Assembly: GCA_963702095.1 (NCBI GenBank)
Contig: OY969706.1
Span: 672,001-736,000, forward strand
Reading direction: 5' to 3'
Source of the DNA: Candidatus Bathyarchaeota archaeon
GTDB lineage: Archaea > Thermoproteota > Bathyarchaeia > Bathyarchaeales > Bathycorpusculaceae
DNA: 64,000 nt
In this document: positions 16,139 to 44,485 of the stretch, in pieces
Position numbering within the stretch: the first letter of the stretch is position 1
How the letters are laid out: each line of letters starts with the position of its first letter
The notes under the pieces: model-generated
Databases searched by the model: none
The model's input: the letters and a program-made list of their open reading frames with translations, nothing else
Told to the model about the DNA's origin: nothing
Program-made: the position numbers and the translations under genes

Positions 16139-16244
16139 CGACTGAAGAAGGCAGAATCAAAGCCAAGAAGAATATTAGTAATAGTGCTTTTCGGGCCTTT
16201 TCGGATATTTTTATCGGTGAAATGAAAAAAAGGGTGGAAGCTTT

Positions 16245-19873: not shown

Positions 19874-20365
19874 CGGGAAGAACAAATGGCGTTAGATTTT
19901 ATATGAATCCGTACACTCGCATTCATACGCGCGGGTATGCCACAGGCATGAGTATTGACAGTAACGGATAATATAGTACACTAATGATAGTGCTGAGGTA
20001 AACGACAATCGATGATATCTTTATGTGGAAAATTTGAGGATTTCTTTTGTTTATTTTGAGGTTATGTTATACGATAATCTGACGGTAAATTCTCGTAAAA
20101 AAGCGCTACAAAGCATTGACTTTGTTCCTGATGAGCAAGCTCTGCATGAAGATACTGGCCAGATAGAAAATTAATATCGCTAACTTAATAGGTGACTAAT
20201 ATCCTAGCTATCCACCAATCGCCAAAGTTCATGTAAATTGGAAAAATCTTGAGATTTGTGTATGGCATCACTTTCAACTAATAAATAATGAGGAAACAAT
20301 ATCCGACTAAAAGTAACGATGAAAAAACAGTATGGAATATCGACTCTATTAGATGAGGGTTTCCT

Positions 20366-21421
20366 ATGACTTCTACCTATAACGTGAACTTGATAACTTT
20401 GAGATTCCCAGTTCCGGCAAGATACGGAAAAATGTACAAAAGCATTAGTAAGATTTTCCGCACAAACCTAATCACTGGAACGGCAGTTGACACAATACAT
20501 CTGAGGATGAATCTGGGAACAATCTATTCCTATGTAAATCTTACTGCAAAATGCACCCTAAATAACAAGCCTTCAGTCCTTGATGTCAATGCCTTATCAA
20601 CATCAATGCTGCATTTGAGAAAAGACTTAGTTGTAGATTTCAGAACCCCTTTTTCATATGAACTGATGTGGCTTGGCCATAGTTATCTATCTCATATTGC
20701 TTCAAATATCGAAAAGCGTCTAAGTAAAATCGGTCTGATTACAGCAGCTAACGAACATATGGCCAAATATTGTAAGGATATTGGTGCTGAAACCGTTCAA
20801 GTTATCCCTAATTATCCCTCTAAAGATTTTATCGCAACGGTGGATCCAATAAACTGGAAAAAGAGGCATCACTTAAAAATAGATGACGATATAGTACTGT
20901 TTACGGGGGGTGTCCGTTTGCGTGAAATTTATGGACTTGATATGCTTCTGAAAAGTTGGAAAATTGTTGAGAATTCTACTGAATCGGGGAAACTTGTAAT
21001 TATAGGCGACGATTCGATTGAAATTATCAAGCAAATTTCCCATAAATTAGGAATAAGAAGGTTAATATTAACTGGCAGAAGAGGACCTAAGGATGTTGCA
21101 AATTGGATAAATTCTGCTAAGTTATGTCTAGCACCTAAAACGCCTGGTTTTTCAAATGCTTTCTATAATGACAAAGACTCAACAAAAATATCGGAATATG
21201 CGGCATTAGAGAAACCTATATTGGCTACAGAGTATGCGCCATCCAGTCAATACCTTCAAGTCTATCCTGACCCTGAGAACTTTGCTGAAGGAGTACTAAA
21301 GGGACTTGATGGCAAGATACAAAACTCAAAAGCCCATTTTTGGGAAGAAAATGAATCTTTATTATTGCGTTCTCTCTCAGAATTCTGGCCTCAAAAGAGT
21401 GCTGATCTGACGGGTATGTAA
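20366..21421 (+). CDS. Glycosyltransferase, GT-B fold (GT4-like)
   Basis: VIPNYP, VLFTGG, LVIIGD, STKISEYAALEKPILAT. Confidence 0.8.
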   Translation: MTSTYNVNLITLRFPVPARYGKMYKSISKIFRTNLITGTAVDTIHLRMNLGTIYSYVNLTAKCTLNNKPSVLDVNALSTSMLHLRKDLVVDFRTPFSYELMWLGHSYLSHIASNIEKRLSKIGLITAANEHMAKYCKDIGAETVQVIPNYPSKDFIATVDPINWKKRHHLKIDDDIVLFTGGVRLREIYGLDMLLKSWKIVENSTESGKLVIIGDDSIEIIKQISHKLGIRRLILTGRRGPKDVANWINSAKLCLAPKTPGFSNAFYNDKDSTKISEYAALEKPILATEYAPSSQYLQVYPDPENFAEGVLKGLDGKIQNSKAHFWEENESLLLRSLSEFWPQKSADLTGM

Positions 21422-21446
21422 ACTTTAATATGGAGGAAAGAGCCAA

Positions 21447-22808
21447 ATGTCAAGCTATAAAGAACTACTTAATAGAATACAAACCAAGAAAGCTAAAATT
21501 GCTGTGATCGGTCTTGGGTACATAGGACTTCCAACGGCTGCTATTTTCGCTAATCTCGGCTTTAATGTAAAAGGTATCGATAAAAACCGTAACATCATAA
21601 ATAGTATTAATCATTCTATATTGCACGTTGAAGAACCAGGCTTGAAAGATATTATTGCGAATGCCGTTCAGAACCATCTTTTCTCTGCAACTGATGACGC
21701 TTCAGATGCCTTGTTTGATGCTGAAGTAATAATAATCTGCGTTCAAACCCCATTAAACCGTGCAGGAACCGCTGATACTTCTTTCCTTGAGAATGCTTGT
21801 CGAGAGATTGCTAGCATTCCAAAAAAAGGTCGACTTCTTATTATACAGAGTACTGTTCCCCCAAACACTATCTCTAACATTGTGATTCCAACTTTGGAAA
21901 AACCAAACATGAGATGTGGTCGAGACTTTTTTGTAGCATATTGTCCTGAACGAATGGCGCCTGGAACAGGGTTACATGATTTATCAGAAAATATGCGCTT
22001 GATCGGTGGATATGACCAAGAGAGTACGACTCTTGCAAGTAGCTTATTCAAATTTGCGACTAAGGGGCCACTTCAATTAACTAGTGTTCCTGCAGCGGAA
22101 CTTTCAAAGCTAGCGGAAAACGCATACAGATATGTTAACATAGCATTTGCCAATGAATTAGCTCTAATATGCAAACAACTAAATGTTGACGTTAAGGAAG
22201 TCATTCAGCTTGCCAACACTCATCCGCGAGTAAATATACATAGTCCTGGATGCGGCGCTGGAGGACCTTGTTTGTCCAAGGATACCAATTTACTTATTAA
22301 TTCAGCAAAATCAGCAGTCTTTAAACCAAAAGTGCTCAAAGCTGCAAAGGAAGTAAACACTAATATGCCCATTTATGTTGCTCAACTAGCTCTGAACGCT
22401 CTAAAAAGTCAAGGGAAGAGCTTCAATACATCGAGAATTGCGATTTTAGGAACGGCGTATAAAGGATGTGTTAATGATTCTCGTGATAGCCCATCCGAAG
22501 GGATAATCAAAGAACTTGAGCGAAATAACGTAATGCAGGTAGTTTTCGATCCATATTGTAATGAATCTTTTGGTCAAAAAAAGGTTTCAGATTTAAAAGA
22601 AGCCGTAACAGGTGCTGACTGTATAATCATTGCAACTGACCATAAAGAATTTTTTCACTTAAATTTAGGTGAAATAAGACAGTTAATGAAATCAGACCCG
22701 ATAATATTGGACGGAAGAAGAACAATAAAAGCCGACGAAGCGGTAAGTTTAGGGTTCGATTATATAACTATATCTCAAAACTGCCGGCTAGAAAACAATA
22801 TTAAATAA
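21447..22808 (+). CDS. Nucleotide-sugar 6-dehydrogenase (WecC/WbpA/WbpO family)
   Basis: IAVIGLGYIGLPTA, ICVQTP, YCPERMAPG, KLAENAYRYVNIAFANE, catalytic GGPCLSKD, AYKG..DSRDSPS. Confidence 0.93.
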   Translation: MSSYKELLNRIQTKKAKIAVIGLGYIGLPTAAIFANLGFNVKGIDKNRNIINSINHSILHVEEPGLKDIIANAVQNHLFSATDDASDALFDAEVIIICVQTPLNRAGTADTSFLENACREIASIPKKGRLLIIQSTVPPNTISNIVIPTLEKPNMRCGRDFFVAYCPERMAPGTGLHDLSENMRLIGGYDQESTTLASSLFKFATKGPLQLTSVPAAELSKLAENAYRYVNIAFANELALICKQLNVDVKEVIQLANTHPRVNIHSPGCGAGGPCLSKDTNLLINSAKSAVFKPKVLKAAKEVNTNMPIYVAQLALNALKSQGKSFNTSRIAILGTAYKGCVNDSRDSPSEGIIKELERNNVMQVVFDPYCNESFGQKKVSDLKEAVTGADCIIIATDHKEFFHLNLGEIRQLMKSDPIILDGRRTIKADEAVSLGFDYITISQNCRLENNIK

Positions 22809-22820
22809 TACTACAAACGC

Positions 22821-24041
22821 ATGCCATCTGGTAAACGAAACGGCGATTTGAAATTGGTAAAGAAAAATACAGTAGATCAGGTAGCGCTTCTTACCCTAGA
22901 AGGCGGCGGTATATCAACTGTATGTTACGGATTAGCTAAAAGACTGGAACAACAAAGAGTGCATGCGACTGTATTCACGGAAACCAAAAGAAAGCAAGAA
23001 ATCAACGTGTTATCTGACCACTTGGAGATTGATAGACTTCATAGAGTAGAATTGCCCCCACGTTTTTTTTGGTTCCAAATGCAGAATTACCGTTTCCTTC
23101 TCAACAAACTCGTGGGTTTTGATATTATTCATGGTGTATATTCAGACGCCTCAACGATGGTTACTCGATATAAGGAAACAATCAAAAAGCCGTTAGTCGT
23201 ATCTTTCCACGCAGAACCCTTTTCTAATCTCCTCGATTTTATCAAAATGCCTGTTACTTCTTGGACACCTCAAGAAATTTTTTTCCACATCTTAGAATAT
23301 CCTTTATTTAAGCATAATTATAGAACTTTCTTGCAAAAATCCGATCATATAATTATCTGTAGCAAATCAACGTTAGAAGAATTTGAAGCAGTTTACAATA
23401 GAGAGATTGATTTGTCTAAGATGACTATAATATATAATGCTATTGACTTAGATGAGCTAAATTCTATTTTTGCCAGCAACGCGCGATCCCTTGAAAAAAG
23501 AGTTTCGATAATTTATGCTGGTCGTTTATTTTGGTTAAAAGGTCTTCAGTACTTACTACGGGCTTTTAAAATAGTTGTTAGAGACTTTCCGTTCGTATTT
23601 TTGGATATCTATGGAGAAGGCCCGGAAGAAATGAAATTTAAGAAACTTGTAAGAACGTTAAAGTTAGAACATAGAGTTTTTTTTCATGGCCGCTTACAAA
23701 AGAATGAATTGTTGCAAAAAATGAAAAATTCTGACATTCTTGTAGCGCCTAGTATGCATGAAGCGCAATCTATGGTTGTGCTCGAAGGAATGGCTTGCCA
23801 AAAACCAGTTATCGCGTTCGATATTCCCTCTATGAAAGAAATAATCTCAGACGGGTATAATGGTCTTCTTGCTCGGTCATTTGATATTGAAGATTTGGCT
23901 GAGAAGATTGAATCTCTTCTCTCTAACGAAAAACTGAGGTTGGAAATAGGAGAAAAGGCCTATATCTATATAAAGAAAAAACATAATTGGCAAAATCAAG
24001 TTCAAGAATACTTGCATATATATAAATCTCTAACAAATTAA
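22821..24041 (+). CDS. Glycosyltransferase family 4
   Basis: IYAGRLFWLKG, IYGEGPE, EAQSMVVLEGMACQKPVI (EX7E). Confidence 0.92.
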   Translation: MPSGKRNGDLKLVKKNTVDQVALLTLEGGGISTVCYGLAKRLEQQRVHATVFTETKRKQEINVLSDHLEIDRLHRVELPPRFFWFQMQNYRFLLNKLVGFDIIHGVYSDASTMVTRYKETIKKPLVVSFHAEPFSNLLDFIKMPVTSWTPQEIFFHILEYPLFKHNYRTFLQKSDHIIICSKSTLEEFEAVYNREIDLSKMTIIYNAIDLDELNSIFASNARSLEKRVSIIYAGRLFWLKGLQYLLRAFKIVVRDFPFVFLDIYGEGPEEMKFKKLVRTLKLEHRVFFHGRLQKNELLQKMKNSDILVAPSMHEAQSMVVLEGMACQKPVIAFDIPSMKEIISDGYNGLLARSFDIEDLAEKIESLLSNEKLRLEIGEKAYIYIKKKHNWQNQVQEYLHIYKSLTN

Positions 24042-24069
24042 GTCCCCAAGTTACCGGTGCAATCTTGCC

Positions 24070-25227
24070 ATGAATTTCGAACTCTTGGATTCCGCAAAAA
24101 AGCTTCACAACTTTATCTATCTCAACTTTTGGGATGGTTTAAAGATTATTGGTCCTGACCCTGGCCTAAAGTTCGACTTACGCTTGTTCCGATTTGTTAA
24201 GAGTTATTTTCCTTTCTTGAGTCAGAATAGTAGATATTTTTTTCTACAAGCCCAAGGTTACTGGATAAGGGCGAACTGGGACTTATTCAAATTAACTTCC
24301 GAGTCCTTATATAAGGACATAGCAATCGCTTGCTCAAACACCGTAATAGAATACCAAAGACCTGATGGTTCCTGGGAATATCCACTTAAGGAGTGGAAGG
24401 ACTATGTTTCGACCGTGGAAGGATGTTGGGCAGCACTAGGACTGTTGAGAAGTTATAGAGAAAGTGGTGATAAAAAATATCTTGACGCAGCAATCCACTG
24501 GTATTCCTTTGTATTTGAGCAAATTGGTTTTGAACCCTATCTTGATTCGTTGGCTGTTAATTATTTTGCGTTCTCTCCAGAAAAGCGGAAAGTGCCGAAC
24601 AACGCTACACTGGCCTTGTGGCTTTTCTCAGAATTGTATGATATTACTGGGGATAAAAAGTTTAACACTTATATCGATAAGTTGGTTAGGTTCCTTGAAA
24701 TTACTCAAAAAACAGACGGTGAGTTAGTTTATGAGGTTGGGAAAGAGCATTATCTTTGTTATCAATATAATTCTTTTGAATTTGTTGACCTATTAAATGC
24801 TTATAATCTTAACAAAAATGTTACACTTAGGCAGATATTAGTGCGTTTAGCAGAGTTTATCAGTTCAGGCGTAACTAAAAAAGGATCGGTAAAGTACTCG
24901 TGCAATCAAGAGTTGCCTGAATTTATTTTGTTTTCCAGTGCCGCTGGATCTGCTTTGTTCAGTGCTTCAAAACAAGGTTTGGGAGACTACTGCAAGGAAA
25001 GTTGCTTAGTATACGGTTACATACTTAAGAATCAGAGAACTGATGGGTCCTTCTATTTTAGTCGACGAGATATGATGTACTACAAGACGCCAGTAAGTTG
25101 GGGTTTTTTAACGGATAAAACTAGATACCCTCGTCAGTTATGTTATTTATTGCAACATATTCTAACCCCGCTGGGTTACAATAGTTCTACTGTTTCCAAA
25201 GAAATCGGATTTGGTATTCATGAATAA
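24070..25227 (+). CDS. (alpha/alpha)6-barrel protein of polysaccharide loci (epimerase/lyase-like, function unknown)
   Basis: Helical repeats ending QRPDGSWEY, QKTDGELVY, QRTDGSFYF; repeated YxxTGDKKY turns; VPNNATL. Confidence 0.65.
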   Translation: MNFELLDSAKKLHNFIYLNFWDGLKIIGPDPGLKFDLRLFRFVKSYFPFLSQNSRYFFLQAQGYWIRANWDLFKLTSESLYKDIAIACSNTVIEYQRPDGSWEYPLKEWKDYVSTVEGCWAALGLLRSYRESGDKKYLDAAIHWYSFVFEQIGFEPYLDSLAVNYFAFSPEKRKVPNNATLALWLFSELYDITGDKKFNTYIDKLVRFLEITQKTDGELVYEVGKEHYLCYQYNSFEFVDLLNAYNLNKNVTLRQILVRLAEFISSGVTKKGSVKYSCNQELPEFILFSSAAGSALFSASKQGLGDYCKESCLVYGYILKNQRTDGSFYFSRRDMMYYKTPVSWGFLTDKTRYPRQLCYLLQHILTPLGYNSSTVSKEIGFGIHE

Positions 25228-25648
25228 TCCCGTGTACTATCTATTCTTAACTGAACACTCGATGTATAAAAAGAGAATACCTATACTGCCTACGGTGATT
25301 CAGGGAATAATCAGATGTTTTTTTTATGCCGTTATTCCGCCACAGATAGAAATTGGAAAAAATGTGCATTTCGGGTATAATGGTCTAGGTATTATTTTGC
25401 ATCCGCGAAGCAGAATTGGGGAGAATGTTAGCATTGGCCCTCATGTTACCGTAGGCGGTAGGGGGCAATATGGTGTTCCGGTTATAGGAAACAATGTTGA
25501 AATAGGCTCTGGCGCAAGGATACTAGGTCCAATTCGTATTGGAAACAATGTCAAAATTGGTGCAAATGCGGTTGTTCTAGTAGATATCCCCGATAACTCA
25601 ACAGCGGTCGGCATTCCAGCAAGGGTTATTAAAAAAACATGTGGCTAA
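25220..25648 (+). CDS. Hexapeptide-repeat O-acetyltransferase (CysE/WcaB-like)
   Basis: IGKNV, IGENVSIG, PVIGNNVEIGSGARILG, IGANAVV...AVGIPARVIK; ATG at 25220. Confidence 0.88.
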   Translation: MNNPVYYLFLTEHSMYKKRIPILPTVIQGIIRCFFYAVIPPQIEIGKNVHFGYNGLGIILHPRSRIGENVSIGPHVTVGGRGQYGVPVIGNNVEIGSGARILGPIRIGNNVKIGANAVVLVDIPDNSTAVGIPARVIKKTCG

Positions 25649-25654
25649 ACAGGT

Positions 25655-27778
25655 TTGGGTATCTCATTGAAGATTTTTAATTTTAACGTTCATGTACCCT
25701 TGTTCATTATCGCTACGTGGATTATAGTTCTATCAGACATTCCTCTTTTACGACAATTATTTGGTTTTATTTTTCTCTACTACCTTACGGGTATGCTGTC
25801 AATAAAAGCATTAGGCATTAGAAAAAATTTTTTGATTTCAACGATATTGTCAATTGCGATAAGTATTGTAATTTCAATGATAATTGGTTTATTGTTAAAT
25901 TGGTCCCTCCCTCTGATGGGTGATTCGACACCGCTTGAAACATCAAATATAATGGTTGCTTTGACTTTTCTTGATTTAGTATTATATGCAAAAATTTTTC
26001 TTTCGAGGCAAGATTTCTCCTCTTTTGATTTAAAAGAAAATCTTGGCAAATCCTTTGTGCTATTAGCCCTTATACCTATTGTGGGCATTATTGGAGCAAT
26101 ATTGGTTGCTTATGGTAATAATGTATTATCGTTGTTTAATTTTGTCATCATTGCTATTGCTGTAATTTTGGCTTCGGCAAGAAAGATTTCTCTACGAGCT
26201 TTTCCTCTTCTAATTTTCGTAATTTCTTTTTCGTTACTACTTCAAACCACATTAACAAACAACTACCTTAACGGTTGGGATATACAAGTTGAATACTATG
26301 TTGCCCAGATTACACAGAGTAAGCAATTCTGGGATTTTTCTTTAATGTCTTCACTTACCACTAGCGTGAACAATTACAATACAATGCTGAGCATAACTAT
26401 TCTACCTACAATCAGTTCAAATATATTGAATATCGATATTCCGTTAGTTTACAAAATTATCTATCCTTTAGTTTTTTCTTTGGTTCCTGTTACGTTGTAT
26501 CTTTTATTTGAAAAACATGTTGGATCTCGCTTTGCATTTATCTCATCGTTCCTTCTACTCTCAATAACAGCTTTTTATCAAATGGCATTTCTAGCAAGAC
26601 AAATGATTGCTGAATTCTTCTTTGTTTTAATTTTCTATTTGCTGATAGAATATGAGTACAAAAAATTATCAAAACCTTTGGCTGTTCTGTTGATTTTATT
26701 CGCTTTTGGACTAGTGGTATCCCATTATTCAACGGCCTTTATGTGCATTTATTATCTTTTATTTTTAACAATAGCTTTTTACAAAAGAATAAATCGATCT
26801 CTGATGCTGTCTTTTTTCTTTCTTTTTATTGATGTAACTTTAATTTGGTATATGACGGTCTCAAATGCCACTCCGCTAGATTCCTTAGGTATGATTGCGA
26901 ACATGAGCTTTCAGGAGCTGTTTACAGGTGCCTCTGGATCATCTCAACTGCTAGCTATGACTAGTAACGAATATTTGGTTAACATATTCAGTAAAGTAGT
27001 TTTTATTTTAATAAATGCAATTATCGCCTTAGGAATTATTCGATTAATTACAAACAGGAAAAAATTTCCTCCCAGCTACTTTGCTATTTGTTTAGGTGGT
27101 GCCATCTTATTATTGGCAGCAGCCTTAGTCCCCAACTTAATTCTTGGACTTGAATTTGCTAGAACTTATCAGTTCGGTCTTATTTTCTCTGCTACTTTGA
27201 TTGTCTTCGGTTCTGATTTAGTCTTAGTAAGCATAGAAAAAATAAGAAAAGTACATATTTCTACTAAGAAATTGATCAATAGAATTGCGCCACCATTACT
27301 ATCGTTTATGATAGTAATTTTCTTCTTATTTCAATACGGTGTAATCACTAATATAGCTGAGGGCGTTCCATCCAATCTTTCGCTTTCTACTGACAAACAA
27401 CAATTTGTCGATACACTTAACCTCTCGCCTCTTAATGCATATATCTATCCACAGGATGTTTACGGTGCAAGATGGCTATCAAATAATTTGGCGAAGGGTT
27501 CAGATACGCCAGTATATTGCGATTCAACATCTGCTTCTCAAGTTCTGCTAAGTTACGGCCTAATAAACCCCTTGCTCATCGCAGTCCCCTCAAACACAAC
27601 ACTCTTACTAAACCAATCAACAGTCTTTTTACGGCAAGTTAACTTAGAATATCATCTATTCCAAGATTTTAAATTCGTGAATAATGTGACAGAATATGGG
27701 AATTTATTGAAAAATACCGATAACATTTATTCTAATGGTGGCTCTCAAATATTATTTTCACCGACCTACCACAAATAG
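25655..27778 (+). CDS. Polytopic membrane protein, DUF2206-like (possible GT-C or polymerase)
   Basis: More than 15 TM helices; LNGWDIQVEYY, YNTMLSITILPT, RQMIAEFF, VVSHYSTA, C-terminal IYSNGGSQI. Confidence 0.8.
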   Translation: MGISLKIFNFNVHVPLFIIATWIIVLSDIPLLRQLFGFIFLYYLTGMLSIKALGIRKNFLISTILSIAISIVISMIIGLLLNWSLPLMGDSTPLETSNIMVALTFLDLVLYAKIFLSRQDFSSFDLKENLGKSFVLLALIPIVGIIGAILVAYGNNVLSLFNFVIIAIAVILASARKISLRAFPLLIFVISFSLLLQTTLTNNYLNGWDIQVEYYVAQITQSKQFWDFSLMSSLTTSVNNYNTMLSITILPTISSNILNIDIPLVYKIIYPLVFSLVPVTLYLLFEKHVGSRFAFISSFLLLSITAFYQMAFLARQMIAEFFFVLIFYLLIEYEYKKLSKPLAVLLILFAFGLVVSHYSTAFMCIYYLLFLTIAFYKRINRSLMLSFFFLFIDVTLIWYMTVSNATPLDSLGMIANMSFQELFTGASGSSQLLAMTSNEYLVNIFSKVVFILINAIIALGIIRLITNRKKFPPSYFAICLGGAILLLAAALVPNLILGLEFARTYQFGLIFSATLIVFGSDLVLVSIEKIRKVHISTKKLINRIAPPLLSFMIVIFFLFQYGVITNIAEGVPSNLSLSTDKQQFVDTLNLSPLNAYIYPQDVYGARWLSNNLAKGSDTPVYCDSTSASQVLLSYGLINPLLIAVPSNTTLLLNQSTVFLRQVNLEYHLFQDFKFVNNVTEYGNLLKNTDNIYSNGGSQILFSPTYHK

Positions 27779-27847
27779 GGAAAGACAATTCCCTGTCTAA
27801 AGTATTTTAGGCACACCTCTAAATAATATTAAAAAGGAAAAAATAAT

Positions 27848-28876
27848 ATGAATGTACTCTTGGTTGGTCATTCAGGGACTGGTGGCGGAAAGGAGCAAAT
27901 AAAAGCATACAGCGCCTTTCTTCAAGCAAAAGGTTATGACGCTACAGCCTTATTATTTCCCTCAGACAGTTACTCTTCAAAACTGTGGTATTTATTTCAA
28001 AATGCACGGGCTAGAATAAACAAGCGAGAAAAAGATGTTATTGAAAAAATATCGCAGCAAATTAAAAAAGAAATAGACAAGAATCGATTTGATGCAATAA
28101 TCTGCGTGGGAACTCCTTTCGCTCATATTTTGTCGAAAGATTTAGATTGTCTTAAGATATTTAGCCCGCAAACATCCGGAAATGATGAGTTGTATTTTTC
28201 TAAACGGTTGGCTATCGAGAGGATTAAGGAATACAAGGATCTTGAAATAGAAATAATGGAAAAATCAGATTTTGTAATTTTTCCTTGTGAGTCACTCCAA
28301 AATTATGTAAAAAAACATGTTATTGATGGTAAGAATTTTGTAATCGTGAATTATGGGTGTTATCCTCAATCACGTCACGTATCATACTCTTTTCCACCAG
28401 CAATAATTTCCATGGGTAATCTAAGTCACTATTGGTCTAACAAAGAGCTTTTATCCACTCTTACTCAGACAAGTCCGTACATAGTAGATGCATACGGTCA
28501 ATATAGACCGGAAAAAAAATATGCAATACGTTATAAAGGGTATGCTTTATCCCTCGATATTTTATACAATTATCAGTTCGGGCTTAATACGGTCTCTAAA
28601 GATCCTCTCAGGAGAAGCGATCATTCTTCTAGAGTGCTTACTTACCTTGCTTATGGTTTGCCTGTTTTATCTCCCGATTGGATGGAATTCTCTAATAGCT
28701 TAAGGGGTTGCTTACCTTTTAACGAAGATAACTTCACTACTCTTATTGAAAGAAACAGTGAAAGAGAGGACTGGGAAAGATTAAGCCGTGAAGCTTATAA
28801 CCAAGCGTTGGAATTAGACTGGAATAAGACGCTTAAGGATCTAGACAGACTATTGACTAGCAATATCAAGACATAA
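27848..28876 (+). CDS. Divergent GT-B glycosyltransferase
   Basis: MNVLLVG start; SSRVLTYLAYGLPVLS; C-terminal LDWNKTL; lies inside the glycan cluster. Confidence 0.65.
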   Translation: MNVLLVGHSGTGGGKEQIKAYSAFLQAKGYDATALLFPSDSYSSKLWYLFQNARARINKREKDVIEKISQQIKKEIDKNRFDAIICVGTPFAHILSKDLDCLKIFSPQTSGNDELYFSKRLAIERIKEYKDLEIEIMEKSDFVIFPCESLQNYVKKHVIDGKNFVIVNYGCYPQSRHVSYSFPPAIISMGNLSHYWSNKELLSTLTQTSPYIVDAYGQYRPEKKYAIRYKGYALSLDILYNYQFGLNTVSKDPLRRSDHSSRVLTYLAYGLPVLSPDWMEFSNSLRGCLPFNEDNFTTLIERNSEREDWERLSREAYNQALELDWNKTLKDLDRLLTSNIKT

Positions 28877-28904
28877 ATTAAATACTTAAGGGATTGAAGT
28901 TTGG

Positions 28905-29960
28905 ATGTCTAAAAAAACAAAAAAGGCATTAATAACTGGCGTTACAGGCCAGGATGGGTCTTACTTGGCAGAATTTTTGCTTGGTAAGGGTTATGAAGTA
29001 CATGGAATTGTGAGAAGGGCATCGACGTTTAACACAAAGAGAATTGATCACCTGATTTTAGATCACCATGACCCTAAGGCGCGATTTTTCTTCTACTATG
29101 GTGATCTATCCGATTCTGAACAAATGTCAAATATTATTAGTGAAATAGTGCCTGATGAAATTTATCACTTAGGAGCTCAAAGCCAAGTTAGAACAAGCTT
29201 CGATATTCCTGAGTATACCGGAAATGTTACTGCGTTGAGTGCAACGAGATTACTTGAGGCTGTTAGAAGAAGCAAATTACCGATTAAATTGTATCAAGCC
29301 TCAAGCAGTGAAATGTTTGGGAGTTCCCCTCCTCCTCAGAATGAGCAAACACCTCTAAAACCACGTAGTCCATACGCGTGTGCAAAGGTATATGCACATT
29401 TAATGACGAATAATTATAGGGAAGGTTACAACATTTTCGTTTGTAATGGCATATTATTCAATCACGAATCACCGAGGCGGGGCGAGACCTTTGTTACCCG
29501 AAAAATTACAAGGGCTATTGCAAGTATACTGAATAAAAAACAAACTGTATTATACCTAGGAAATCTCGATAATCGACGTGATTGGGGTTTTGCTCCAGAG
29601 TATGTAGAAATGATGTGGAAAATGTTACAGATCAAATGTCCAGAAGACTTTGCAATTGGAACTGGAGAGGCCCATTCAATAAATGAATTTCTAGAAGAAG
29701 CTTTCTCGTATGCAGGTTTGGATTGGCATAAATATGTCAAAATTGACCCGATGTATTTTAGGCCGACTGAACCAGAAACACTAATCGCAGACGCAGCCAA
29801 AGCTAAAGAAAAACTGGACTGGAAACCCAAGGTCAAATTTATTGACTTAGTTAAAATTATGGTTGATTCCGATGTACGTTCTGTAGGACTGAACCCTCCT
29901 GGCGAAGGAGATGAAATACTCAAAAGACTCTTTCCAGATCGCTGGTGGAAAATAGATTAA
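28905..29960 (+). CDS. gmd: GDP-mannose 4,6-dehydratase
   Basis: [56 protein letters not shown]. Confidence 0.97.
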
Positions 29961-29973
29961 GGGGACCAGCAAT

Positions 29974-30903
29974 TTGGATAAGAAAATATTTGTGCCTGGC
30001 GGAAACGGGTTCTTGGGGAGAAGAATTACAAAGAAATTACAAGAAAGGAAAGTTCCTTTTGTTTCTCTTTCTCTTCGTGACGGATATGATTTCCGTAATT
30101 TTGAGCAAACCTTGGGTTTATTTGAGGAGAACAATTTTGATGCAGTAATAAATTGTGCAGCTTTTGTTGGAGGCATACAATTTGGCTATGAGAAACCTGC
30201 TGAATTATATTACAACAATATTGTTATGGCAACTAACCTGATGGAAGCCGCAAGACGAACAGGTGTAAAAAAGTTTGTCAATCCAATTTCTAACTGTTCT
30301 TACCCGGCGAAAGTGACCACCGATTTCAAAGAGGATGAATGGTGGGAAGGTGAGCTTCACGAATCGGTTCTGGTTTACGGCTTTGTACGAAAAGCTAGTT
30401 GGGTGCAGAGCTGGGCGTATGAAAAGCAGTATGGGTTCCAAACAGTAAATCTCATATTGCCCAATATGTATGGCCGTGGGGATCACTTTGAAGAAAAGCG
30501 ATCTCACGCTTTAGGTGCCTTAATTATGAAAATGGTACAGGCAAAAAGGAATGGCGTCTCTCAAGTTACTATTTGGGGAACTGGAGCACCAGTAAGAGAA
30601 TGGCTTTACGTTGATGATGGCGCAGAAGCGTTGATTAGAAGCTTAGACATAGAAAACGTACCTTTTCCAATTAATATTGGTGTGGGGAAAGGTATCTCCA
30701 TTGGAAATCTCGCTAATTTAATTAAAGAAATAGTAGATTTTAGCGGCAATTTGGTTTTTGACCCATCTAAGCCGGATGGGGCAATGCATAAAACCATGAA
30801 TAATGAACGGATGCAACAAATTTTAAAGTGGGCGCCATCAATGAGCCTGAAGGAAGGAATAGCGACTACAGTGGAATGGTATACAGAAAACGTTGTTGAA
30901 TGA
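29974..30903 (+). CDS. fcl: GDP-L-fucose synthase family epimerase/reductase
   Basis: GGNGFLG, AAFVGGI, SNCSYP, YGFVRK, SH, WGTGAPVREWLYVDD, SKPDG; follows gmd. Confidence 0.85.
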   Translation: MDKKIFVPGGNGFLGRRITKKLQERKVPFVSLSLRDGYDFRNFEQTLGLFEENNFDAVINCAAFVGGIQFGYEKPAELYYNNIVMATNLMEAARRTGVKKFVNPISNCSYPAKVTTDFKEDEWWEGELHESVLVYGFVRKASWVQSWAYEKQYGFQTVNLILPNMYGRGDHFEEKRSHALGALIMKMVQAKRNGVSQVTIWGTGAPVREWLYVDDGAEALIRSLDIENVPFPINIGVGKGISIGNLANLIKEIVDFSGNLVFDPSKPDGAMHKTMNNERMQQILKWAPSMSLKEGIATTVEWYTENVVE

Positions 30904-31331
30904 CCATGGCCACAGAGAAAATAATGCACAGTCAAGAAATTTTAGCCTTGATCCTCCGAGATTCAGATTGGCAGGAAGGATTAAACTTCCTATCCCAAAG
31001 CAGCGACTACCAGCAAGTGGGTACTTGGTGGTATAATGCTGGCAAAAAACTCAATGCACACATTCACCTCCCCGAGCAACGTGTCGTATTGTATACCCAG
31101 GAAGTCCTATTTATCAAAAAAGGTGCGGTGCGTGCCTATATCTACTCGCAAGATGAAACTTTAGTTCATACTGCTGATTTGTTTGAAGGTGATGTCATAG
31201 TTCTTTTGAGAGGGGGCCATGGCTATAGAATTTTACAGGACGGGACAAAAGTCTTAGAAGTAAAAAATGGCCCTTACGTTGGCGCCGACAAAGATCGAAG
31301 AGTTATCGAAAAACCAAAAATTGAGGATTGA
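30900..31331 (+). CDS. Cupin-fold protein (WbuC-like) of nucleotide-sugar clusters
   Basis: AHIH...TQEVL...GGHG...EVKNGPY cupin metal motif. Confidence 0.75.
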   Translation: MTMATEKIMHSQEILALILRDSDWQEGLNFLSQSSDYQQVGTWWYNAGKKLNAHIHLPEQRVVLYTQEVLFIKKGAVRAYIYSQDETLVHTADLFEGDVIVLLRGGHGYRILQDGTKVLEVKNGPYVGADKDRRVIEKPKIED

Positions 31332-31334
31332 TGC

Positions 31335-32426
31335 ATGACGTTCATAAATCAAATGGAACCGTGGATAGGTGAAGAGGAAAAGAGAGCAGTCATAGCTTAT
31401 TTAGAAGGTGGTGGTTGGCTTACCGAATTTAAGAAGACCCGCGAGTTTGAACAAATGATTGCTAGTTATGTTAATTCTAAATATGTCTCGGTAGTTAATA
31501 ACGGAACCACTAGTTTAATCGTTGCTTTAATGAGTCTAGGTATAGGTCTCGATGACGAAGTCATTGTTCCAGATTATACGATGATCGCGTCGTCTAATGC
31601 TGTAATCTTCGCAGGAGCTAAGCCAATTTTAGTCGATATTGAGAAGGAAAACCTATGCTTAGATCTTCAAAAGACTGAAGAATCAATAACAGAAAGAACA
31701 AAAGCGATAATGCATGTCAGCATTAACGGCAGAAGCAACAATATGGAAAAAGTTATGTCTCTAGCTAGAAAGCATAACTTGTATGTGGTTGAAGATGCCG
31801 CCCAGTCCCTTGGGTCCAAGTTTAATGGTAAGCATCTAGGTACATTTGGCGATATTGGGAGTATTTCTTTTAGCGCTCCGAAAATTATTACAACAGGTCA
31901 GGGTGGAGCTTTACTGACTGATAATGAAGAAATATTTAAAAGAATTCTGATGGTTCGGGACTTTGGCCGTACAAAAGCGGGGGTAGACTATCACCAAGTA
32001 TTGGGTTTAAACGCCAAATTTACCGATATCCAAGCTGTAATTGGTATAGAGCAAATGAAAAAGCTAGATTGGAGGGTAAAACGAAAGAAAGAAATTTATA
32101 AGCTCTATTGTGAACAATTAGCTAAGCTCGACCAGATTGAATTAATAGAAACGAATCTTGAGGAAACGTCCCCTTGGTTTATGGATATTTTCGTTAGGGC
32201 ACATAGAACACAGCTGATGTCCTTTCTTAAGGAAAAAGGAATAGGCACCCGACTATTCTATCCACCTATTCATACCCAACCCCCTTATCTATGGGTAAAA
32301 GGGCAGTTCGAAAAGTCAACTTTTGTATCTGATCATGGATTGTGGCTTCCATCTTCTTCTTTTCTCACTGACGACCAAATTGAGTTCATCTGTAAAAATA
32401 TTAAGGCATTCTTTGACGGCAATTAG
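31335..32426 (+). CDS. DegT/DnrJ/EryC1/StrS PLP sugar aminotransferase (perosamine-synthase-like)
   Basis: NNGTTSL, EDAAQSLG, SFSAPKIITTGQGG with the Schiff-base Lys present, GLWLPSS. Confidence 0.92.
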   Translation: MTFINQMEPWIGEEEKRAVIAYLEGGGWLTEFKKTREFEQMIASYVNSKYVSVVNNGTTSLIVALMSLGIGLDDEVIVPDYTMIASSNAVIFAGAKPILVDIEKENLCLDLQKTEESITERTKAIMHVSINGRSNNMEKVMSLARKHNLYVVEDAAQSLGSKFNGKHLGTFGDIGSISFSAPKIITTGQGGALLTDNEEIFKRILMVRDFGRTKAGVDYHQVLGLNAKFTDIQAVIGIEQMKKLDWRVKRKKEIYKLYCEQLAKLDQIELIETNLEETSPWFMDIFVRAHRTQLMSFLKEKGIGTRLFYPPIHTQPPYLWVKGQFEKSTFVSDHGLWLPSSSFLTDDQIEFICKNIKAFFDGN

Positions 32427-32447
32427 GTGTTATTTGGAAAGTTGAAG

Positions 32448-33290
32448 TTATCCCTGTGGAGTAGCTAGAGAAAGTGTCGAGGCAACTATCATGCTGTCGC
32501 TTAGAATATAGTTCCGTGGGCTTCGGTAGTCTTGGTAAATGCCCGTATCAATGAACGCGCCATCGCATGTTGGGTCGCCTGTTCTTAGATCGTGGATGCC
32601 GGTGTGAACTTTATTAGCGTCAGTTAATGCGCCAGTTGTTGATGTTGATAACCACATTGTTAGATTGCCATTTTGTTTAAATTCGGCATAAATTACTACT
32701 CGGAACCATTGATTTAGTGGTGCGTTGTCAATCCAATATTGATTTTCACCTCCTGTGGAGTCTTTTTGGTAAAGATACATTTTGAGCATGCCGCTTTGAT
32801 TGCAAAGAATTATGCAGGCCGGCAATCCTGATGCATCGTCGCTCTTGCAGTGCATTTGCATAATATTGCACCAGTTGGCTGAAGGTGATATAGAGAATGT
32901 GCTTGGGATATACAATGCCGCACCAAAATAGAATTGTGGCGTGTCTTGCATCACATTCCAACGAATAAGTTTTGAACGCACAACACCGCTTGCAGGCGGG
33001 TTATTAATGCTCGAATTTGCGCTGTATGCGCCATTAAAAACGTTTGTTGACTCTAAAACCGAGCCTGAATTGCTGCTGCTCGGATAGGTTTGCACTTCAC
33101 CACCGTTTACTATTTCGTTGAAATTGCCGTTATCGAAAAAGGCGCTCCAATAGACTTGTCCACTTGATACCTGTCCTTGGGCGGTGACTGATTTTGAAAC
33201 CGTTGTGCTTGAATTGCCTGTTTGAATACCTATAGATAGGAGTAAACTTAGGGATAAAATTAGGATGATGGCTTTCTTAACTTCTTCCAT
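32448..33290 (-). CDS. Secreted polysaccharide-lyase-like jelly-roll protein (paralog B)
   Basis: Signal peptide; YWSAFFDNGNF, FYFGAALYIPSTF, NIMQMH, LNQWF, FIDTGIY motifs shared with paralogs A and C. Confidence 0.72.
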   Translation of the reverse strand: MEEVKKAIILILSLSLLLSIGIQTGNSSTTVSKSVTAQGQVSSGQVYWSAFFDNGNFNEIVNGGEVQTYPSSSNSGSVLESTNVFNGAYSANSSINNPPASGVVRSKLIRWNVMQDTPQFYFGAALYIPSTFSISPSANWCNIMQMHCKSDDASGLPACIILCNQSGMLKMYLYQKDSTGGENQYWIDNAPLNQWFRVVIYAEFKQNGNLTMWLSTSTTGALTDANKVHTGIHDLRTGDPTCDGAFIDTGIYQDYRSPRNYILSDSMIVASTLSLATPQG

Positions 33291-33574
33291 TTCACACCCA
33301 TCTATTGTGTTAAGACTTAATATAAGTGAGATATTTATGCCTTACTAATTGACAAACATTAGAATCATATTCTTTAATCTTTCACACATTTTACCACTGA
33401 TATGAATTTATTTTACCGTGAACCTTTTTGAGAAAATATGACTGACGTTCTCTTGTCTTCACTCAATCCAAAAGAAAAACAATGTGAATTATTACAACAC
33501 TATCCTTAAATAAAACATAAATATACGGTGAACTAACCCCTGATTTACAACAAACTGGGAAGGGCTATAATATA

Positions 33575-34824
33575 GTGACCGATAACATAGTTGGGCAGAA
33601 AAAAATTTATGTTGTTACCAATGGTTGCCCAGAAAATCGACTAGACGTATCCAGTGAACAAGAGCTTCTTAGGTAAAAAATGGGTTTATAGTCACAAAGA
33701 ACTGGCATGAGGCAGATTTTATCTTTTTTAATGCGTGTGGCCGGTCTGATGAATCAGCTCAATATTCACTGCAAATAATTAATTATATTCAAGAAACAAA
33801 AGGTAAGGATCAGATTCTGATTGTCTGGGGGTGTTTACCCAAGATAGATTTAGATTTATTGAAGCAAAACTTCGATGGAACTATTATCCCCGCCTCAGAT
33901 CTTAAAGAGTTCATAAAATCGCTAGGTGTTGTTGGAGAAATCGAACCGGTTGCAAGCAACAAGCTAGGCGAATCATGGCGATTAAGTAAGGACATAGCCT
34001 CTAACTATAGGCGTTATGAGGGCTCTCTGCTAAGTAGAGCATATAAAAAGGCTGGACTTAAATGGGAATCATATCTTAATTCTAACTTCAATCTTGTGAA
34101 GGATAAAGACCCGTCTATTTTCTACATTAAGGTATCTACCGGTTGTCATAGCAATTGCGCTTACTGCGCTATTAAGAAATCTAGGGGAATGACTAAAAGC
34201 AAACCAATACCCAAAGTCGTAGCAGAGTTTAGAACTGGTTTGCAACAGGGATTTAAAAAATTTAGTCTACTTGGTACTGATCTTAGCTCATATGGCATGG
34301 ATATTGGATGTACTCTCAATGATCTACTTAAGGAGCTTATACGAGAAAAGGGCGATTTCAAAATCAGTTTAAGAAACATAAATCCCGGCAATTTTAAGCG
34401 ACTGATCGATGACTTCCTGCCTTTACTTAGTAGCAATAAAATAGAATATCTTGAAATGGCTGCCGAATCAGGAAGCGATAGAATAATCAAGCTTATGAAT
34501 CGTACCTATACTATAGCTGAATTCAAAGAAATGGTCTCTAAAATCCGTAAAGCTTATCCCCAGTTCATTTTAAGAACTCAATTGATTGCGGGTTTTCCAA
34601 CCGAAACAGAGGAAGAATTCCAAGAGACCATGAATTTAGTAGACGATGTGGTTTTCGATTTTGTGGAAGTATATGAATTCTCAGAACGCAAAGGAACTAT
34701 TGCAGAGAAGTTGGAACCCAAAGTACCTGATAATATAAAAAAAAGACGGTATATGAAGTTATACAGAAAGGCGATTTTAAATAGAACCCCGCGGAAGATT
34801 AAACATATCATTCTGAATAAGTGA
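33575..34824 (+). pseudogene. MiaB/MtaB-like radical SAM methylthiotransferase without TRAM domain; 1-nt frameshift near 33672
   Basis: From GTG 33575: KIYVVTNGCPENRLD; after the shift ADFIFFNACG and LIVWGCLP (three N-terminal Cys); CHSNCAYC; ESGSDRIIKLMNR; IAGFPTETEEEF. Confidence 0.82.
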
Positions 34825-35045
34825 GAGCGGCCAGAAAATACTTTTTAAAGATCCAGTCCTAAAGAGAATATATTTCGTTGCTATCTTAAAAGTATGAAAT
34901 TTGTTCTATGTTTTTACCCCTAACGTACTTTTCTTGGGTGACTACATTATAATTAATCAGTTGCCCATTTCTATTGTATTTCTGATCAACAGAAACACGT
35001 GTAGATTAATACTGTAGTGCTTCGATATTACTTGCCGAGGAATGG

Positions 35046-36587
35046 ATGGCGTCTACTGAAAGTGAAATTTCACTTGAACGATTAATAAACTTATTAAGGC
35101 GAGTGAAGAATGCTGTCTTTAAGTTTGCTTTAGTATTTCTTACTACTTTTCAAGTATTCAATGATAGGGCAATTAAATCCAGTTTATTACTTACTAAGCA
35201 TGTTTTGAGAACATTATCCGTTCAATTGATTACTAAAGGAAAAGGCATATCGAAAGAAAAATTGGCAAGTGCTTTTACTATTACTTTATTGATATTTGCA
35301 TTTGTTGGATTTTTCACTTCGATTGGATTCTTCGGTTCAGCCGCCTCTCCTCCCTCTTTTTCCTCTTATCAACAATATTCACAATGGATGAGAACTTCTC
35401 CCTTTTCTGCTGCTACTTCACTAAATCCGACTGCTAATTTGGATCCTTTTCCGGTTCCTAGGTATGATCATCCGCTTGTTACTCAAACTCCAGCACCAAC
35501 TACCTCAAAAATAACTACTCCCACAGAAACGCCCTCGGTCACTGTTTCTCCTGCTCTCACCAGTAACTCATCCGCTTCCACAGCCCCTGCGCCTACTCTT
35601 TCTCCAACATCCACTCCAACACCTGCTCCCTTACCGACGACTACTCCTTCTCCAACATCCACTCCAACACCTGCTCCCTTACCGACGACTACTCCTTCTC
35701 CAACATCCACTCCAACACCTGCTCCCTTACCGACGACTACTCCTTCTCCAACATCCACTCCAACACCTGCTCCCTTACCGACGACTACTCCTTCTCCAAC
35801 TTCAACACCCACCCCAACAACACGACCTACTCCAACACCATCACCTACTCCCTCACCCACCACTAAACCAGACAGCGGAACACTATACTGGAAAGCCGAC
35901 TTCGAAGAAGGCAACTTCCAAGACCTAACAGGCACAGCAAAAACATCCAACGGCGAAGCACAAGTAACCCCCGGCGCCACCCTAAACGTAGAAACAAGCA
36001 ACGTCTTCGCCGGACACTACGCAGCCCAAGCCACAGTAACATACTCCTCAGGAATAAACCACGCCAAAGCAATAAGCTGGACACCAGCAAGAAACATAGC
36101 GGACTTCTACTTCGGTGCTGCAATATATTTGCCTTCTGATTTTGTGTCAAAAATAGGTAGTTCTGGTTGGGTTAATGTAATGCAGGTTCATGGTATGACT
36201 AGTAATGATGTTCCTGCTGCTTTGATTGCGAATAAGCTGTCTGATGGTTCGGTAAAGTTTACGTTGTGGAGTATGGTGGACGGCGGAGCGTGGAGAACTG
36301 TGTGGCAGGACACAGTGGATGTTTCGAATTATTTGGGTAAGTGGTTTACGGTGGTTATGCATATTCATTCGGTTTCTAATGGTGTGTTGGAGCTTTGGAT
36401 AAATGGTGATTGGAAGGTGACTAGTTATTCAAATTATGCTCCCTCTGATGAATATGCGAACGGTTTTGTTGACGCCGGCATATATCTTGGTTCGGGTACG
36501 CCTAATACTTTGCCTATGACAGTATACATTGACAATATGGTTCTAGCCTCCACATACGCCACAACCTACTCCGCCCTATACTCCTAA
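35046..36587 (+). CDS. Membrane-anchored PT-repeat protein with lyase-like jelly-roll domain (paralog C)
   Basis: TM helix, long PT linker, C-terminal domain nearly identical in protein sequence to 16245..17267. Confidence 0.8.
   Translation: MASTESEISLERLINLLRRVKNAVFKFALVFLTTFQVFNDRAIKSSLLLTKHVLRTLSVQLITKGKGISKEKLASAFTITLLIFAFVGFFTSIGFFGSAASPPSFSSYQQYSQWMRTSPFSAATSLNPTANLDPFPVPRYDHPLVTQTPAPTTSKITTPTETPSVTVSPALTSNSSASTAPAPTLSPTSTPTPAPLPTTTPSPTSTPTPAPLPTTTPSPTSTPTPAPLPTTTPSPTSTPTPAPLPTTTPSPTSTPTPTTRPTPTPSPTPSPTTKPDSGTLYWKADFEEGNFQDLTGTAKTSNGEAQVTPGATLNVETSNVFAGHYAAQATVTYSSGINHAKAISWTPARNIADFYFGAAIYLPSDFVSKIGSSGWVNVMQVHGMTSNDVPAALIANKLSDGSVKFTLWSMVDGGAWRTVWQDTVDVSNYLGKWFTVVMHIHSVSNGVLELWINGDWKVTSYSNYAPSDEYANGFVDAGIYLGSGTPNTLPMTVYIDNMVLASTYATTYSALYS
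35601..35800 (+). repeat. Four tandem 48-bp repeats encoding SPTSTPTPAPLPTTTP
   Basis: TCTCCAACATCCACTCCAACACCTGCTCCCTTACCGACGACTACTCCT repeated 4 times plus a partial copy. Confidence 0.93.
35785..36157. repeat. 373-bp inverted repeat, right copy (partner 16675..17047)
   Basis: Matches the reverse complement of 16675..17047. Confidence 0.92.
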
Positions 36588-36982
36588 AACTCGTTTTGAT
36601 TGATCTCGTCTGCTTCTCCAGCCCTATCAACGCTTAGATTATAGTGAGCAGTTTCTCCCATTTCTGTTTGCACTATCTTCCGTAAAACGGAAGCGTCATT
36701 AAAGGCACCCTACGCTTTCTGTTGATTTCTCCGCTCTTCACTCAAACCCTTTTTTGGCATCTTCTCTCTGATGGTTAGCGGTGACTTTAATTTTTTAGCT
36801 TTTAATTATGCTTAAAAAGCGGTTTGACGCCAAAAAGGATGAAGGTAGTTTTTTTGGCATTGGTATCCTCAAGCAAATAATTGTTTTTTCAATTGCTGCT
36901 TATTAACTATTTGAAATGGCAACGCATTAAGAACAGGTGATATCATTTAACGTTTATACTTCCATTTTCGGCATGCCTAACT

Positions 36983-44355: not shown

Positions 44356-44485
44356 AAACGATCGCTTTGGATATCAAACAGCACTGCTAATGCTTTCTAA
44401 TATCGTAATCGCTATGTAGGTTTACATGTTAATATGGCGGAATCGTAATAGTATAATTCGTTTATTAGAAGGAGAGGGCTTGCAA

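Follow-up and report, generated by a model that had tools for sequence, protein, structure and literature searches.

A probable GRINS-type pair of inverted surface-protein paralogs with oppositely recoded centres in a bathyarchaeal glycan island

The window considered here is a 64-kb stretch of DNA (G000:C1:672001-736000) from the genome of a Candidatus Bathyarchaeota archaeon, assembled as a single contig of 2.94 Mb with 46.8% GC (genome G000), the small-subunit rRNA of which gives an archaeal match of 1489 bits. Two related genes, called A and C below, lie in it in inverted orientation, and in the central part of their alignment they use opposite classes of third codon position: mostly A or C in gene A, and mostly G or T in gene C. 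The explanation considered probable, with a good deal of doubt attached, is that of GRINS-type inverted paralogs, with ends homogenised by gene conversion and an oppositely skewed centre. According to this explanation A and C would be an old paralogous pair of cell-surface genes flanking an 18.7-kb glycan-synthesis cluster, and the 842-bp repeat which they share would be a GRINS-type element, that is coding DNA with intense correlated GC and TA skew, mainly at synonymous sites. Gene conversion would keep a 373-bp tract and the 3' tail identical or nearly so, and the 361-bp centre would have escaped it, leaving A in the A/C-ending state of highly expressed genes of the genus and C in a G/T-ending one, far under the neutral level.

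Third codon positions in genes A and C

The share of A+C at third codon positions (M3) is used throughout as the measure of codon choice. The reverse complement of 16245-17267 (gene A) was aligned by codons with 35046-36587 (gene C), and the genes and the parts of their alignment are the following:

16245..17267, minus strand: gene A, 340 aa, with a signal-peptide-like N-terminus, a short Pro/Thr linker and a predicted polysaccharide-lyase-fold domain; codons mostly A/C-ending
35046..36587, plus strand: gene C, 513 aa, with a long N-terminal extension including a hydrophobic segment, a long Pro/Thr linker and a predicted lyase-fold domain as in A
35593..35800, plus strand: 48-nt tandem repeat coding for the Pro/Thr linker of C, 4.3 copies, 99% matches
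35785..36157, plus strand: tract of 373 bp in C, identical to 17047-16675 in A
36158..36518, plus strand: divergent centre of C, 120 codons, M3 0.14; third positions T 62, G 41, A 9, C 8
16314..16674, minus strand: homologous centre of A, 120 codons, M3 0.69; third positions C 46, A 37, G 19, T 18
36519..36587, plus strand: 3' tail of C with the stop codon, near-identical in A, A/C-ending in both copies

Directional recoding between A and C directly after the identical tract had been proposed in an earlier sequence-only reading, and the codons on which that proposal was built are reproduced by the alignment. In the divergent centre 67 third positions have A or C in gene A and G or T in gene C, a single one shows the opposite arrangement and 7 differ within a class (binomial p=4.7e-19), so the statement that neutral drift is too weak for such one-sidedness is well founded. 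The effect had been placed at 36158..36480; the start was correct, while the end lies about 40 bp further, at 36518. Purely synonymous codon pairs of the centre divide 50 vs 1 in the same direction, first positions follow them (13 vs 2) and second positions do so weakly (4 vs 2). Nucleotide identity of A and C across the centre is 0.728 and amino-acid identity 0.82.

Gene C is a mosaic of an A/C-ending and a G/T-ending tract, and its M3 profile taken per 20 codons reads ...9998 2021 0429. Within the identical tract, which begins inside the last unit of the tandem repeat, positions 35790-36113 are A/C-ending (M3 0.90) and 36114-36157 lean to G/T in A and C alike; the last 22 codons before the stop (36519-36584) are 91% identical between the genes. 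In the centre of A, too, there is an island that leans to G/T, formed by the codons that correspond to C 36366-36425. Hidden Markov segmentation of C delimits a G+T-rich patch at 36111-36419, preceded by DNA that is A+C-rich on the plus strand (35481-36110). Among 1618 open reading frames (ORFs) of at least 200 aa, C possesses the second-lowest 100-codon M3 window (0.12) together with one of 0.92, and the range inside this gene is the widest in the genome list (genome mean 0.617, standard deviation 0.117); M3 of the whole gene A is 0.71. Repetition of the comparison on other paralog pairs, as had been suggested, places the A/C pair first in one-sidedness (70 vs 2, p=1e-18) among 199 alignments with at least 55% amino-acid identity across at least 80 residues.

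The sole outgroup protein for A and C is P0002, a Joint Genome Institute metagenome protein that is 77% identical. Compared with it by eye, the replacements found in A (V>I, S>T, V>A, I>T) lead toward A/C and those found in C (I>V, N>D, N>S, T>S, Q>E) toward G/T. Judged by these replacements, both copies have moved, in opposite nucleotide directions.

As the sequence-only reading had stated, both segments are rich in G+T on the plus strand (0.51-0.73 over A and 0.60-0.71 over the tract of C), and a strand-specific force had been suspected. It can be said that a directional, strand-asymmetric force is needed; its tie to the plus strand or to replication does not hold. Replication-associated asymmetry leaves the leading strand rich in G+T, so a mutation pressure of replication or of the locus that turns the plus strand G+T-rich at both genes would act on the same axis as the skew described here, an excess of G over C and of T over A in a single strand, and the cumulative keto skew of the chromosome does show a broad minimum at about 0.75-1.1 Mb, not far from the window. 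Nevertheless, the skew at A and C is confined to about 100-600 bp, reverses its sign inside a gene and does not extend over the neighbours: the ten ORFs of 200 aa or more that lie between A and C, with the third paralog B left out, have M3 0.40-0.51, the genes between and beside A and C as a whole 0.40-0.61, and the adjoining DNA a G+T share of about 0.5. The plus strand is A+C-rich at 1-12 kb and 56-64 kb of the window, as it is at 35481-36110 within C itself. Across the genome M3 is practically equal for genes on the plus (0.610) and minus (0.607) strand, therefore the bias tracks the coding strand and not the chromosome strand, and in most genes the skew follows the coding strand whatever the orientation; same-strand paralog pairs are directional as well (59:162 and 31:93). 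A pressure bound to the chromosome strand is accordingly the least credible of all the explanations considered.

Two further concepts bear a formal resemblance to the locus. Homogenised ends with a diverged centre recall the divergence islands of converting paralogs, and the centre of C, in which the less-used codon class is concentrated, formally resembles rare-codon clusters. Neither of them, however, predicts that nearly all synonymous differences fall on one axis and in opposite directions in the two copies.

As a separate observation, the Pro/Thr linker is single and short in A and tandem-expanded in C, the linker length differing through repeat expansion.

The inverted repeat and published GRINS

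The two genes are joined by an inverted repeat with the following arms:

16243..17084, minus strand: left arm, in gene A, 842 nt
35748..36589, plus strand: right arm, in gene C, 842 nt

The arms are 86% complementary, lie 18,663 nt apart and have an overall identity of 85.7%; no further copies of the repeat were found in the G000 genome. In the paper that describes them, GRINS are duplicated regions of more than 500 bp with more than 80% identity and mean absolute GC and TA skews above 0.15 (PMC8256042). Their skews are reported there as positively correlated, with abrupt switches between G+T-rich and C+A-rich DNA, strongest at third positions and accompanied by altered amino-acid use (PMC8256042). 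The same text presents GRINS as recoding proteins with biased nucleotides and speeding diversification through gene conversion, by which the copies are thought to be homogenised, and gives the origin of the skew as unknown (PMC8256042).

The A/C repeat agrees with this description in most respects. Under the identity scheme of that paper (150-nt windows, step 30, five-window mean; PMC8256042) the mean stays at 0.80 or higher for 11 steps in a row (about 570 bp) and falls to 0.69-0.77 across the divergent centre. Mean absolute GC and TA skews are 0.192 and 0.278 in the A arm (r=0.51) and 0.359 and 0.299 in the C arm (r=0.87), both arms thus showing the required strength and correlation, and near 36110 the GC skew of the C arm jumps from -0.72 to +0.56. 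None of the other duplications among the genome's 39 of 500 bp or more is as strongly skewed as the C arm, the values of which lie above the 99th percentile (0.258) of regions of about 840 bp. Emphasis on third positions and a shift of amino-acid use are both present. Windows in the G/T state contain more Val (0.110 vs 0.066) and Trp (0.019 vs 0.005), and those in the A/C state more Thr (0.073 vs 0.044), as in the G+T and C+A tracts of GRINS; altogether V, L, W, M and F are raised in G/T windows and I, K, N and T in A/C windows, and Gly (0.069 vs 0.075) and Pro (0.049 vs 0.042) run slightly opposite to the GRINS expectation. The likeness thus covers a coding duplication of more than 500 bp and more than 80% identity, correlated skews above 0.15 with abrupt switches within 1 kb, and third-position-led skew with an amino-acid shift; homogenisation of the copies by gene conversion would be a further point in common.

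There are also differences from GRINS as presented in the parts of PMC8256042 consulted. The host here is an archaeon, while bacteria were analysed there, with amoebae and choanoflagellates mentioned, and the genes are inverted surface genes of predicted polysaccharide-lyase fold around a glycan cluster instead of modules of polyketide synthases (PKS). Correlated skew is general in the coding DNA of this genome (r between GC and TA skew is 0.40 over all G000 windows, and 0.44 in 400 kb of the relative G007), in contrast to 0.09 given for non-GRINS regions (PMC8256042). Opposite skews in the unconverted centre of two copies are not described in those parts of the paper. As far as the sources were available, the literature matches concern PKS or nonribosomal peptide synthetases (NRPS), and the one that mentions archaea is an NRPS preprint. 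With the A/C pair, GRINS would be known from an archaeal host and from genes of cell-surface glycans as well; what would be new are the opposite skews of paralogous copies, the skew states found genome-wide and in single-copy genes, and the switching between species without change of protein.

Skew across the genome and between species

Mean M3 over the 1618 ORFs is 0.61. A run of 15 ribosomal-protein ORFs has M3 of 0.59-0.85, with 11 of the 15 at 0.71 or more (the genome median being 0.595), and elongation factors EF-1alpha (0.76) and EF-2 (0.74) and the thermosome subunits (0.65-0.78) are similar; in this genome high expression goes with A/C-ending codons. Codon choice is also patchy within genes. 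The M3 variance of 40-codon blocks is 2.75 times the binomial expectation, the autocorrelation of third-position class is 0.12 at one codon and gone by 20-50 codons, and a third position is predicted much better by neighbouring third positions (standardised coefficient 0.454) than by local first and second positions (0.062). Three-state segmentation assigns 8.1% of the genome to strongly skewed patches, of which those in ORFs of at least 200 aa comprise 498 of sense A/C and 88 of sense G/T type. A 30-codon window with M3 of 0.2 or lower occurs in 277 of the 1618 ORFs, a number that includes wrong-strand shadow ORFs and is not used as a firm count. Three paralogous secreted repeat proteins (G000:C1:270721-272148, 1918689-1920080 and 2225782-2227149) have in common a G/T-coded C-terminal region (100-codon M3 0.15-0.23); as they are G/T-coded at the same protein segment, this state can be common to paralogs as well as differ between them.

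The single-copy ftsZ gene (G000:C1:858558-859664) is G/T-ending over its first 130 codons or so: M3 is 0.19 over 97 aligned codons of this patch and 0.85 in the rest of the gene. Across 25 orthologues of the genus the same patch has M3 of at least 0.67 in 20, of 0.57-0.61 in 4 and of 0.25 in one, G431, the G/T state of which looks independent (its amino-acid identity to G000 in the patch is 0.82); a further relative, G377, carries a G/T patch at another place in ftsZ. The nearest relative found, G007, with about 86-88% DNA identity to G000 and most of the largest syntenic blocks at about 84-90%, has M3 0.57 in the patch, with 100% amino-acid identity and 54% third-position identity to G000 (80% in the remainder of the gene), and the codon list read by eye shows differences toward G000 that are mostly A>G and C>T. 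Since the patch is recoded to G/T with 100% amino-acid identity to G007, the change arose in place. Import of the patch from another lineage is ruled out by the amino-acid identity, and a DNA search of 401 genomes of the class gave a best identity of 74%. As a side observation, about 300 nt of non-coding DNA upstream of a promoter-like TATA box of ftsZ (G000:C1:858240-858530) are almost pure A+C on the plus strand, with G+T of 0.15-0.19 in 120-nt windows, and the G/T-coded start of the gene follows directly.

G000 and G007 were compared over 246,811 aligned positions, where mismatch rates are 25.9% at third, 7.5% at first and 4.3% at second positions and 13.7% in non-ORF DNA. Successive mismatches that change between amino (A, C) and keto (G, T) bases share their direction with a correlation of 0.147 at third positions, 0.10 in non-ORF DNA and 0.039 at first and second positions. 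Strongly directional patches number 61, where 4.8 would be expected and none of 50 permutations gave more than 10, and third-position divergence inside them is modestly higher (0.332 vs 0.256). Taken together, these alignments indicate recoding that is general, in place and mostly synonymous, and that reflects neither hypermutation nor import.

A foreign origin of the G/T tract of C, as an assembly chimera or a recombination import from a G/T-ending organism, would suit its abrupt borders, the low-GC accessory island around it and the failure to find orthologues of A and C in 60 relatives; a separate search of genome contigs returned spurious short matches only. The reading frame and the Pfam domain, however, run continuously through the junctions, and third positions in the tract (A 9, C 8 of 120; M3 0.14) are unlike those of the island genes (0.40-0.51 without paralog B). 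Comparable patches exist in independent assemblies of other species (G007, G431, G377), the ftsZ patch is identical in protein to a sister species and so is not imported, the G000/G007 patches show no raised divergence at first and second positions, and no genome with overall G/T-ending usage was found among the loci sampled. A foreign tract is considered very improbable.

Selection against homology was proposed in the sequence-only reading as suppression of recombination between the copies; disjoint codon sets would block conversion, inversion and hairpins between inverted copies that flank the cluster. In its favour it may be said that an inverted pair still exchanging sequence (373 bp identical) bears the most extreme directional difference of the genome, and that both arms, through their opposite skews, become G+T-rich on the same strand and so lose complementarity within it. 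It is not needed, since single-copy ftsZ and the 61 patches between species are recoded alike without any paralog. Furthermore, selection per synonymous site would be minute, the centre of A falls short of an extreme, and the identical ends show that exchange is unsuppressed there. This possibility is regarded as improbable, though it may contribute in this particular inverted pair.

Pure selection on codon choice deserves more attention, although it is also rather unlikely. It holds that A was optimised to preferred A/C-ending codons, that the centre of C was selected for non-preferred ones, for example for slow or low translation, pacing of co-translational folding or secretion, or partition of dosage between the paralogs, and that conversion made the mosaic. 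The A/C-ending style of ribosomal-protein and elongation-factor genes agrees with it, as do the confinement of most skew to coding DNA (flanks at about 0.5, patches 2.3 times rarer outside ORFs), the ftsZ patch without amino-acid change and patches without a rise in first- and second-position changes or in the ratio of transitions to transversions. On the other hand, codons that end in C or U and specify the same amino acid should be served by a single G34 tRNA, and anticodons with G34, U34 and C34 were all found, so the tRNA pool gives no account of the shift from C to T; an all-wobble G/T state is ruled out by the same anticodons. M3 of 0.14-0.19 lies far under that of the island genes, so relaxed selection would not be sufficient. 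The nucleotide direction is the same for amino-acid replacements (13:2 at first positions), a third position is predicted far better by its neighbouring third positions than by amino-acid context, and the essential ftsZ gene has G/T coding in one species and A/C coding in 20 of the 25 others compared.

For the cause of the skew in the GRINS-type pair, a combination is tentatively favoured, though it falls a little short of being probable: a local, DNA-level, strand-asymmetric amino-keto substitution bias, added to a translational preference for A/C-ending codons, filtered by purifying selection at the protein level and shuffled through gene conversion. Substitution bias is suggested because amino-acid replacements run in the same direction, because a weaker signal exists outside ORFs and because a joint shift of C>T and A>G has no obvious reason in codon preference. 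The competing reading, selection on synonymous sites, is favoured by enrichment in coding DNA, by the unchanged first- and second-position divergence and transition:transversion ratio, and by transversions that nearly equal transitions.

Several of these observations weigh against the explanation by GRINS-type paralogs and a substitution bias. Skew is not special to repeats, as 9 of the 39 duplicated regions and 25.1% of 4079 ordinary regions of about 840 bp pass the 0.15 thresholds, and the skews of the A arm (0.19, 0.28) are not extreme; the link of repeats with skew that defines GRINS in PKS clusters is not reproduced in G000. The A/C pair is therefore best described, on its sequence, as an apparent GRINS-type element in a genome where the skew process is pervasive. 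The stretch of 373 identical bp beside 27% divergence fits gene conversion, which is inferred from this identity. The coding DNA of P0002, the sole outgroup protein, was not found in metagenome contigs. Flanking non-coding DNA is near 0.5 and tracks adjacent codons weakly (r=0.11-0.14), and directional patches cover 2.0% of non-ORF DNA vs 4.6% of ORF DNA, the non-ORF class including unannotated small genes. In the patches neither first- and second-position divergence (0.055 vs 0.059) nor the transition:transversion ratio (654:407 vs 10299:6603) is raised, and at fourfold sites of the A/C tract there are 12 transversions (A>T 8, C>G 4) to 15 transitions (C>T 11, A>G 4).

A bolder proposal, which is speculative and judged unlikely, is that coding DNA of the genus exists in two metastable skew phases, A+C-rich or G+T-rich in the sense strand, which flip locally and in place within the time that separates species about 86% identical in DNA, conversion merely spreading or freezing them. 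The flips would come from a self-reinforcing strand-asymmetric process, for example one in which a single strand is exposed by R-loops or by intermediates of recombination. On this view the mode of sequence evolution would be a general one, with GRINS as its repeated and visible part, and more than 100 genomes of the genus, with independent ftsZ flips in at least 3 lineages, would make the origin of their skew directly testable.

Whatever the mechanism, it is constrained to act in place, mostly at synonymous sites and independently of the replication strand, with no signature of hypermutation and no genome-wide benefit to mRNA folding. The genus offers a comparative system in which mutation bias may be told from selection by comparative and population genomics. 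There are consequences for annotation too, for skew tracts look like foreign DNA, give rise to long false antisense frames and mislead both the estimation of synonymous divergence and recombination tests.

Several more specific mechanisms were tried and rejected. One was an mRNA hairpin between the A/C and G/T tracts: the C region folds with -193.1 kcal/mol vs -205.7±8.7 in shuffles (z=+1.44), z is +1.77 for A and -0.37 for ftsZ with its A/C-rich upstream tract, and no designed structure is present. General selection against mRNA structure fails as well: native minus synonymously shuffled mean minimum free energy is +0.11±0.12 kcal/mol, and native folding is weaker in 37 of 70 random genes. 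Gene C alone is clearly less structured than its synonymous shuffles (z about +4.6), which is read as a consequence of codon segregation. An antisense gene under the G/T tract of C was also dismissed; the sole frame is a stop-to-stop one of 93 codons (36147-36428) with a low-complexity basic product, and it exists because A-ending sense codons are lacking. Adjacent patches of opposite sign do not behave as origin-like switches, the two orders being equally common (101 vs 117), as gene arrangement alone gives.

The glycan island and further observations

A, B and C all match the Pfam profile PF14099 (Polysacc_lyase) above its gathering score of 29.9 bits: A with E=7.9e-14 and 52.5 bits, C with E=2.9e-14 and 53.9 bits and B with E=1.7e-9 and 38.3 bits. 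No sequence match to solved structures was obtained for the three at E up to 0.1; by the profile matches a polysaccharide-lyase fold is predicted for them. The other features of the locus are:

32448..33290, minus strand: paralog B, 280 aa, same fold family, outside the A/C repeat
17268..35045, strand not assigned: glycan-synthesis cluster enclosed by the inverted A and C, GC 0.34-0.42, recognised by Pfam and composition

Paralog B has M3 0.61 and a tblastn identity of 28-31% to the A/C family. The enclosed cluster encodes glycosyltransferases, UDP-glucose dehydrogenase, GDP-mannose dehydratase, an epimerase and an aminotransferase (Pfam), and it forms part of a low-GC island (0.34-0.42) at 12-56 kb of the window, rich in glycan-synthesis genes and surrounded by core DNA of about 0.50 GC. 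Other proteins of the window, which mark the host as an archaeon, include Rpb1-type RNA polymerase domains, an archaeal type IV pilin N-terminus, DUF1616 and DUF2206 (Pfam).

The same island contains a collagen-like Gly-X-Y repeat protein (Pfam Collagen, E=1.2e-9; ORF 38465-40258) with tandem repeats of 63-nt and 126-nt units at 38426-38699. A second inverted paralog pair is found at 44377-46047 and 57810-60754, in pieces 79-91% identical and 11.8-16.2 kb apart; its left copy is broken into ORFs of 163 and 370 aa, the right one is a 944-aa gene without a Pfam match, and at 57836-58559 the skews again exceed the limits set for GRINS (0.32 and 0.21, r=0.89). A direct repeat of 78% identity (54412-54545 and 62006-62139) marks the 5' ends of two PKD-domain surface-protein genes with pilin-like N-termini.

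Outside the window, the single 16S and 23S rRNA genes (G000:C1:2048161-2049650 and 2263549-2266575) lie about 214 kb apart, both on the minus strand and with no common operon. A G+T-rich element family, absent from the window, has 101 copies in the genome (56 plus, 45 minus; median 146 nt, about 78% identical, mostly intergenic), for example at G000:C1:1455935-1456068, 2891204-2891377, 363663-363788 and 780028-780166. As a centre of recoding it was rejected, for G+T in its flanks is flat (0.47-0.51) and sense G/T patches are no nearer to it (p=0.31). The element contains short hairpin-forming segments and has no Rfam match, and a sequence resembling it was noticed by eye directly after the 23S rRNA gene.

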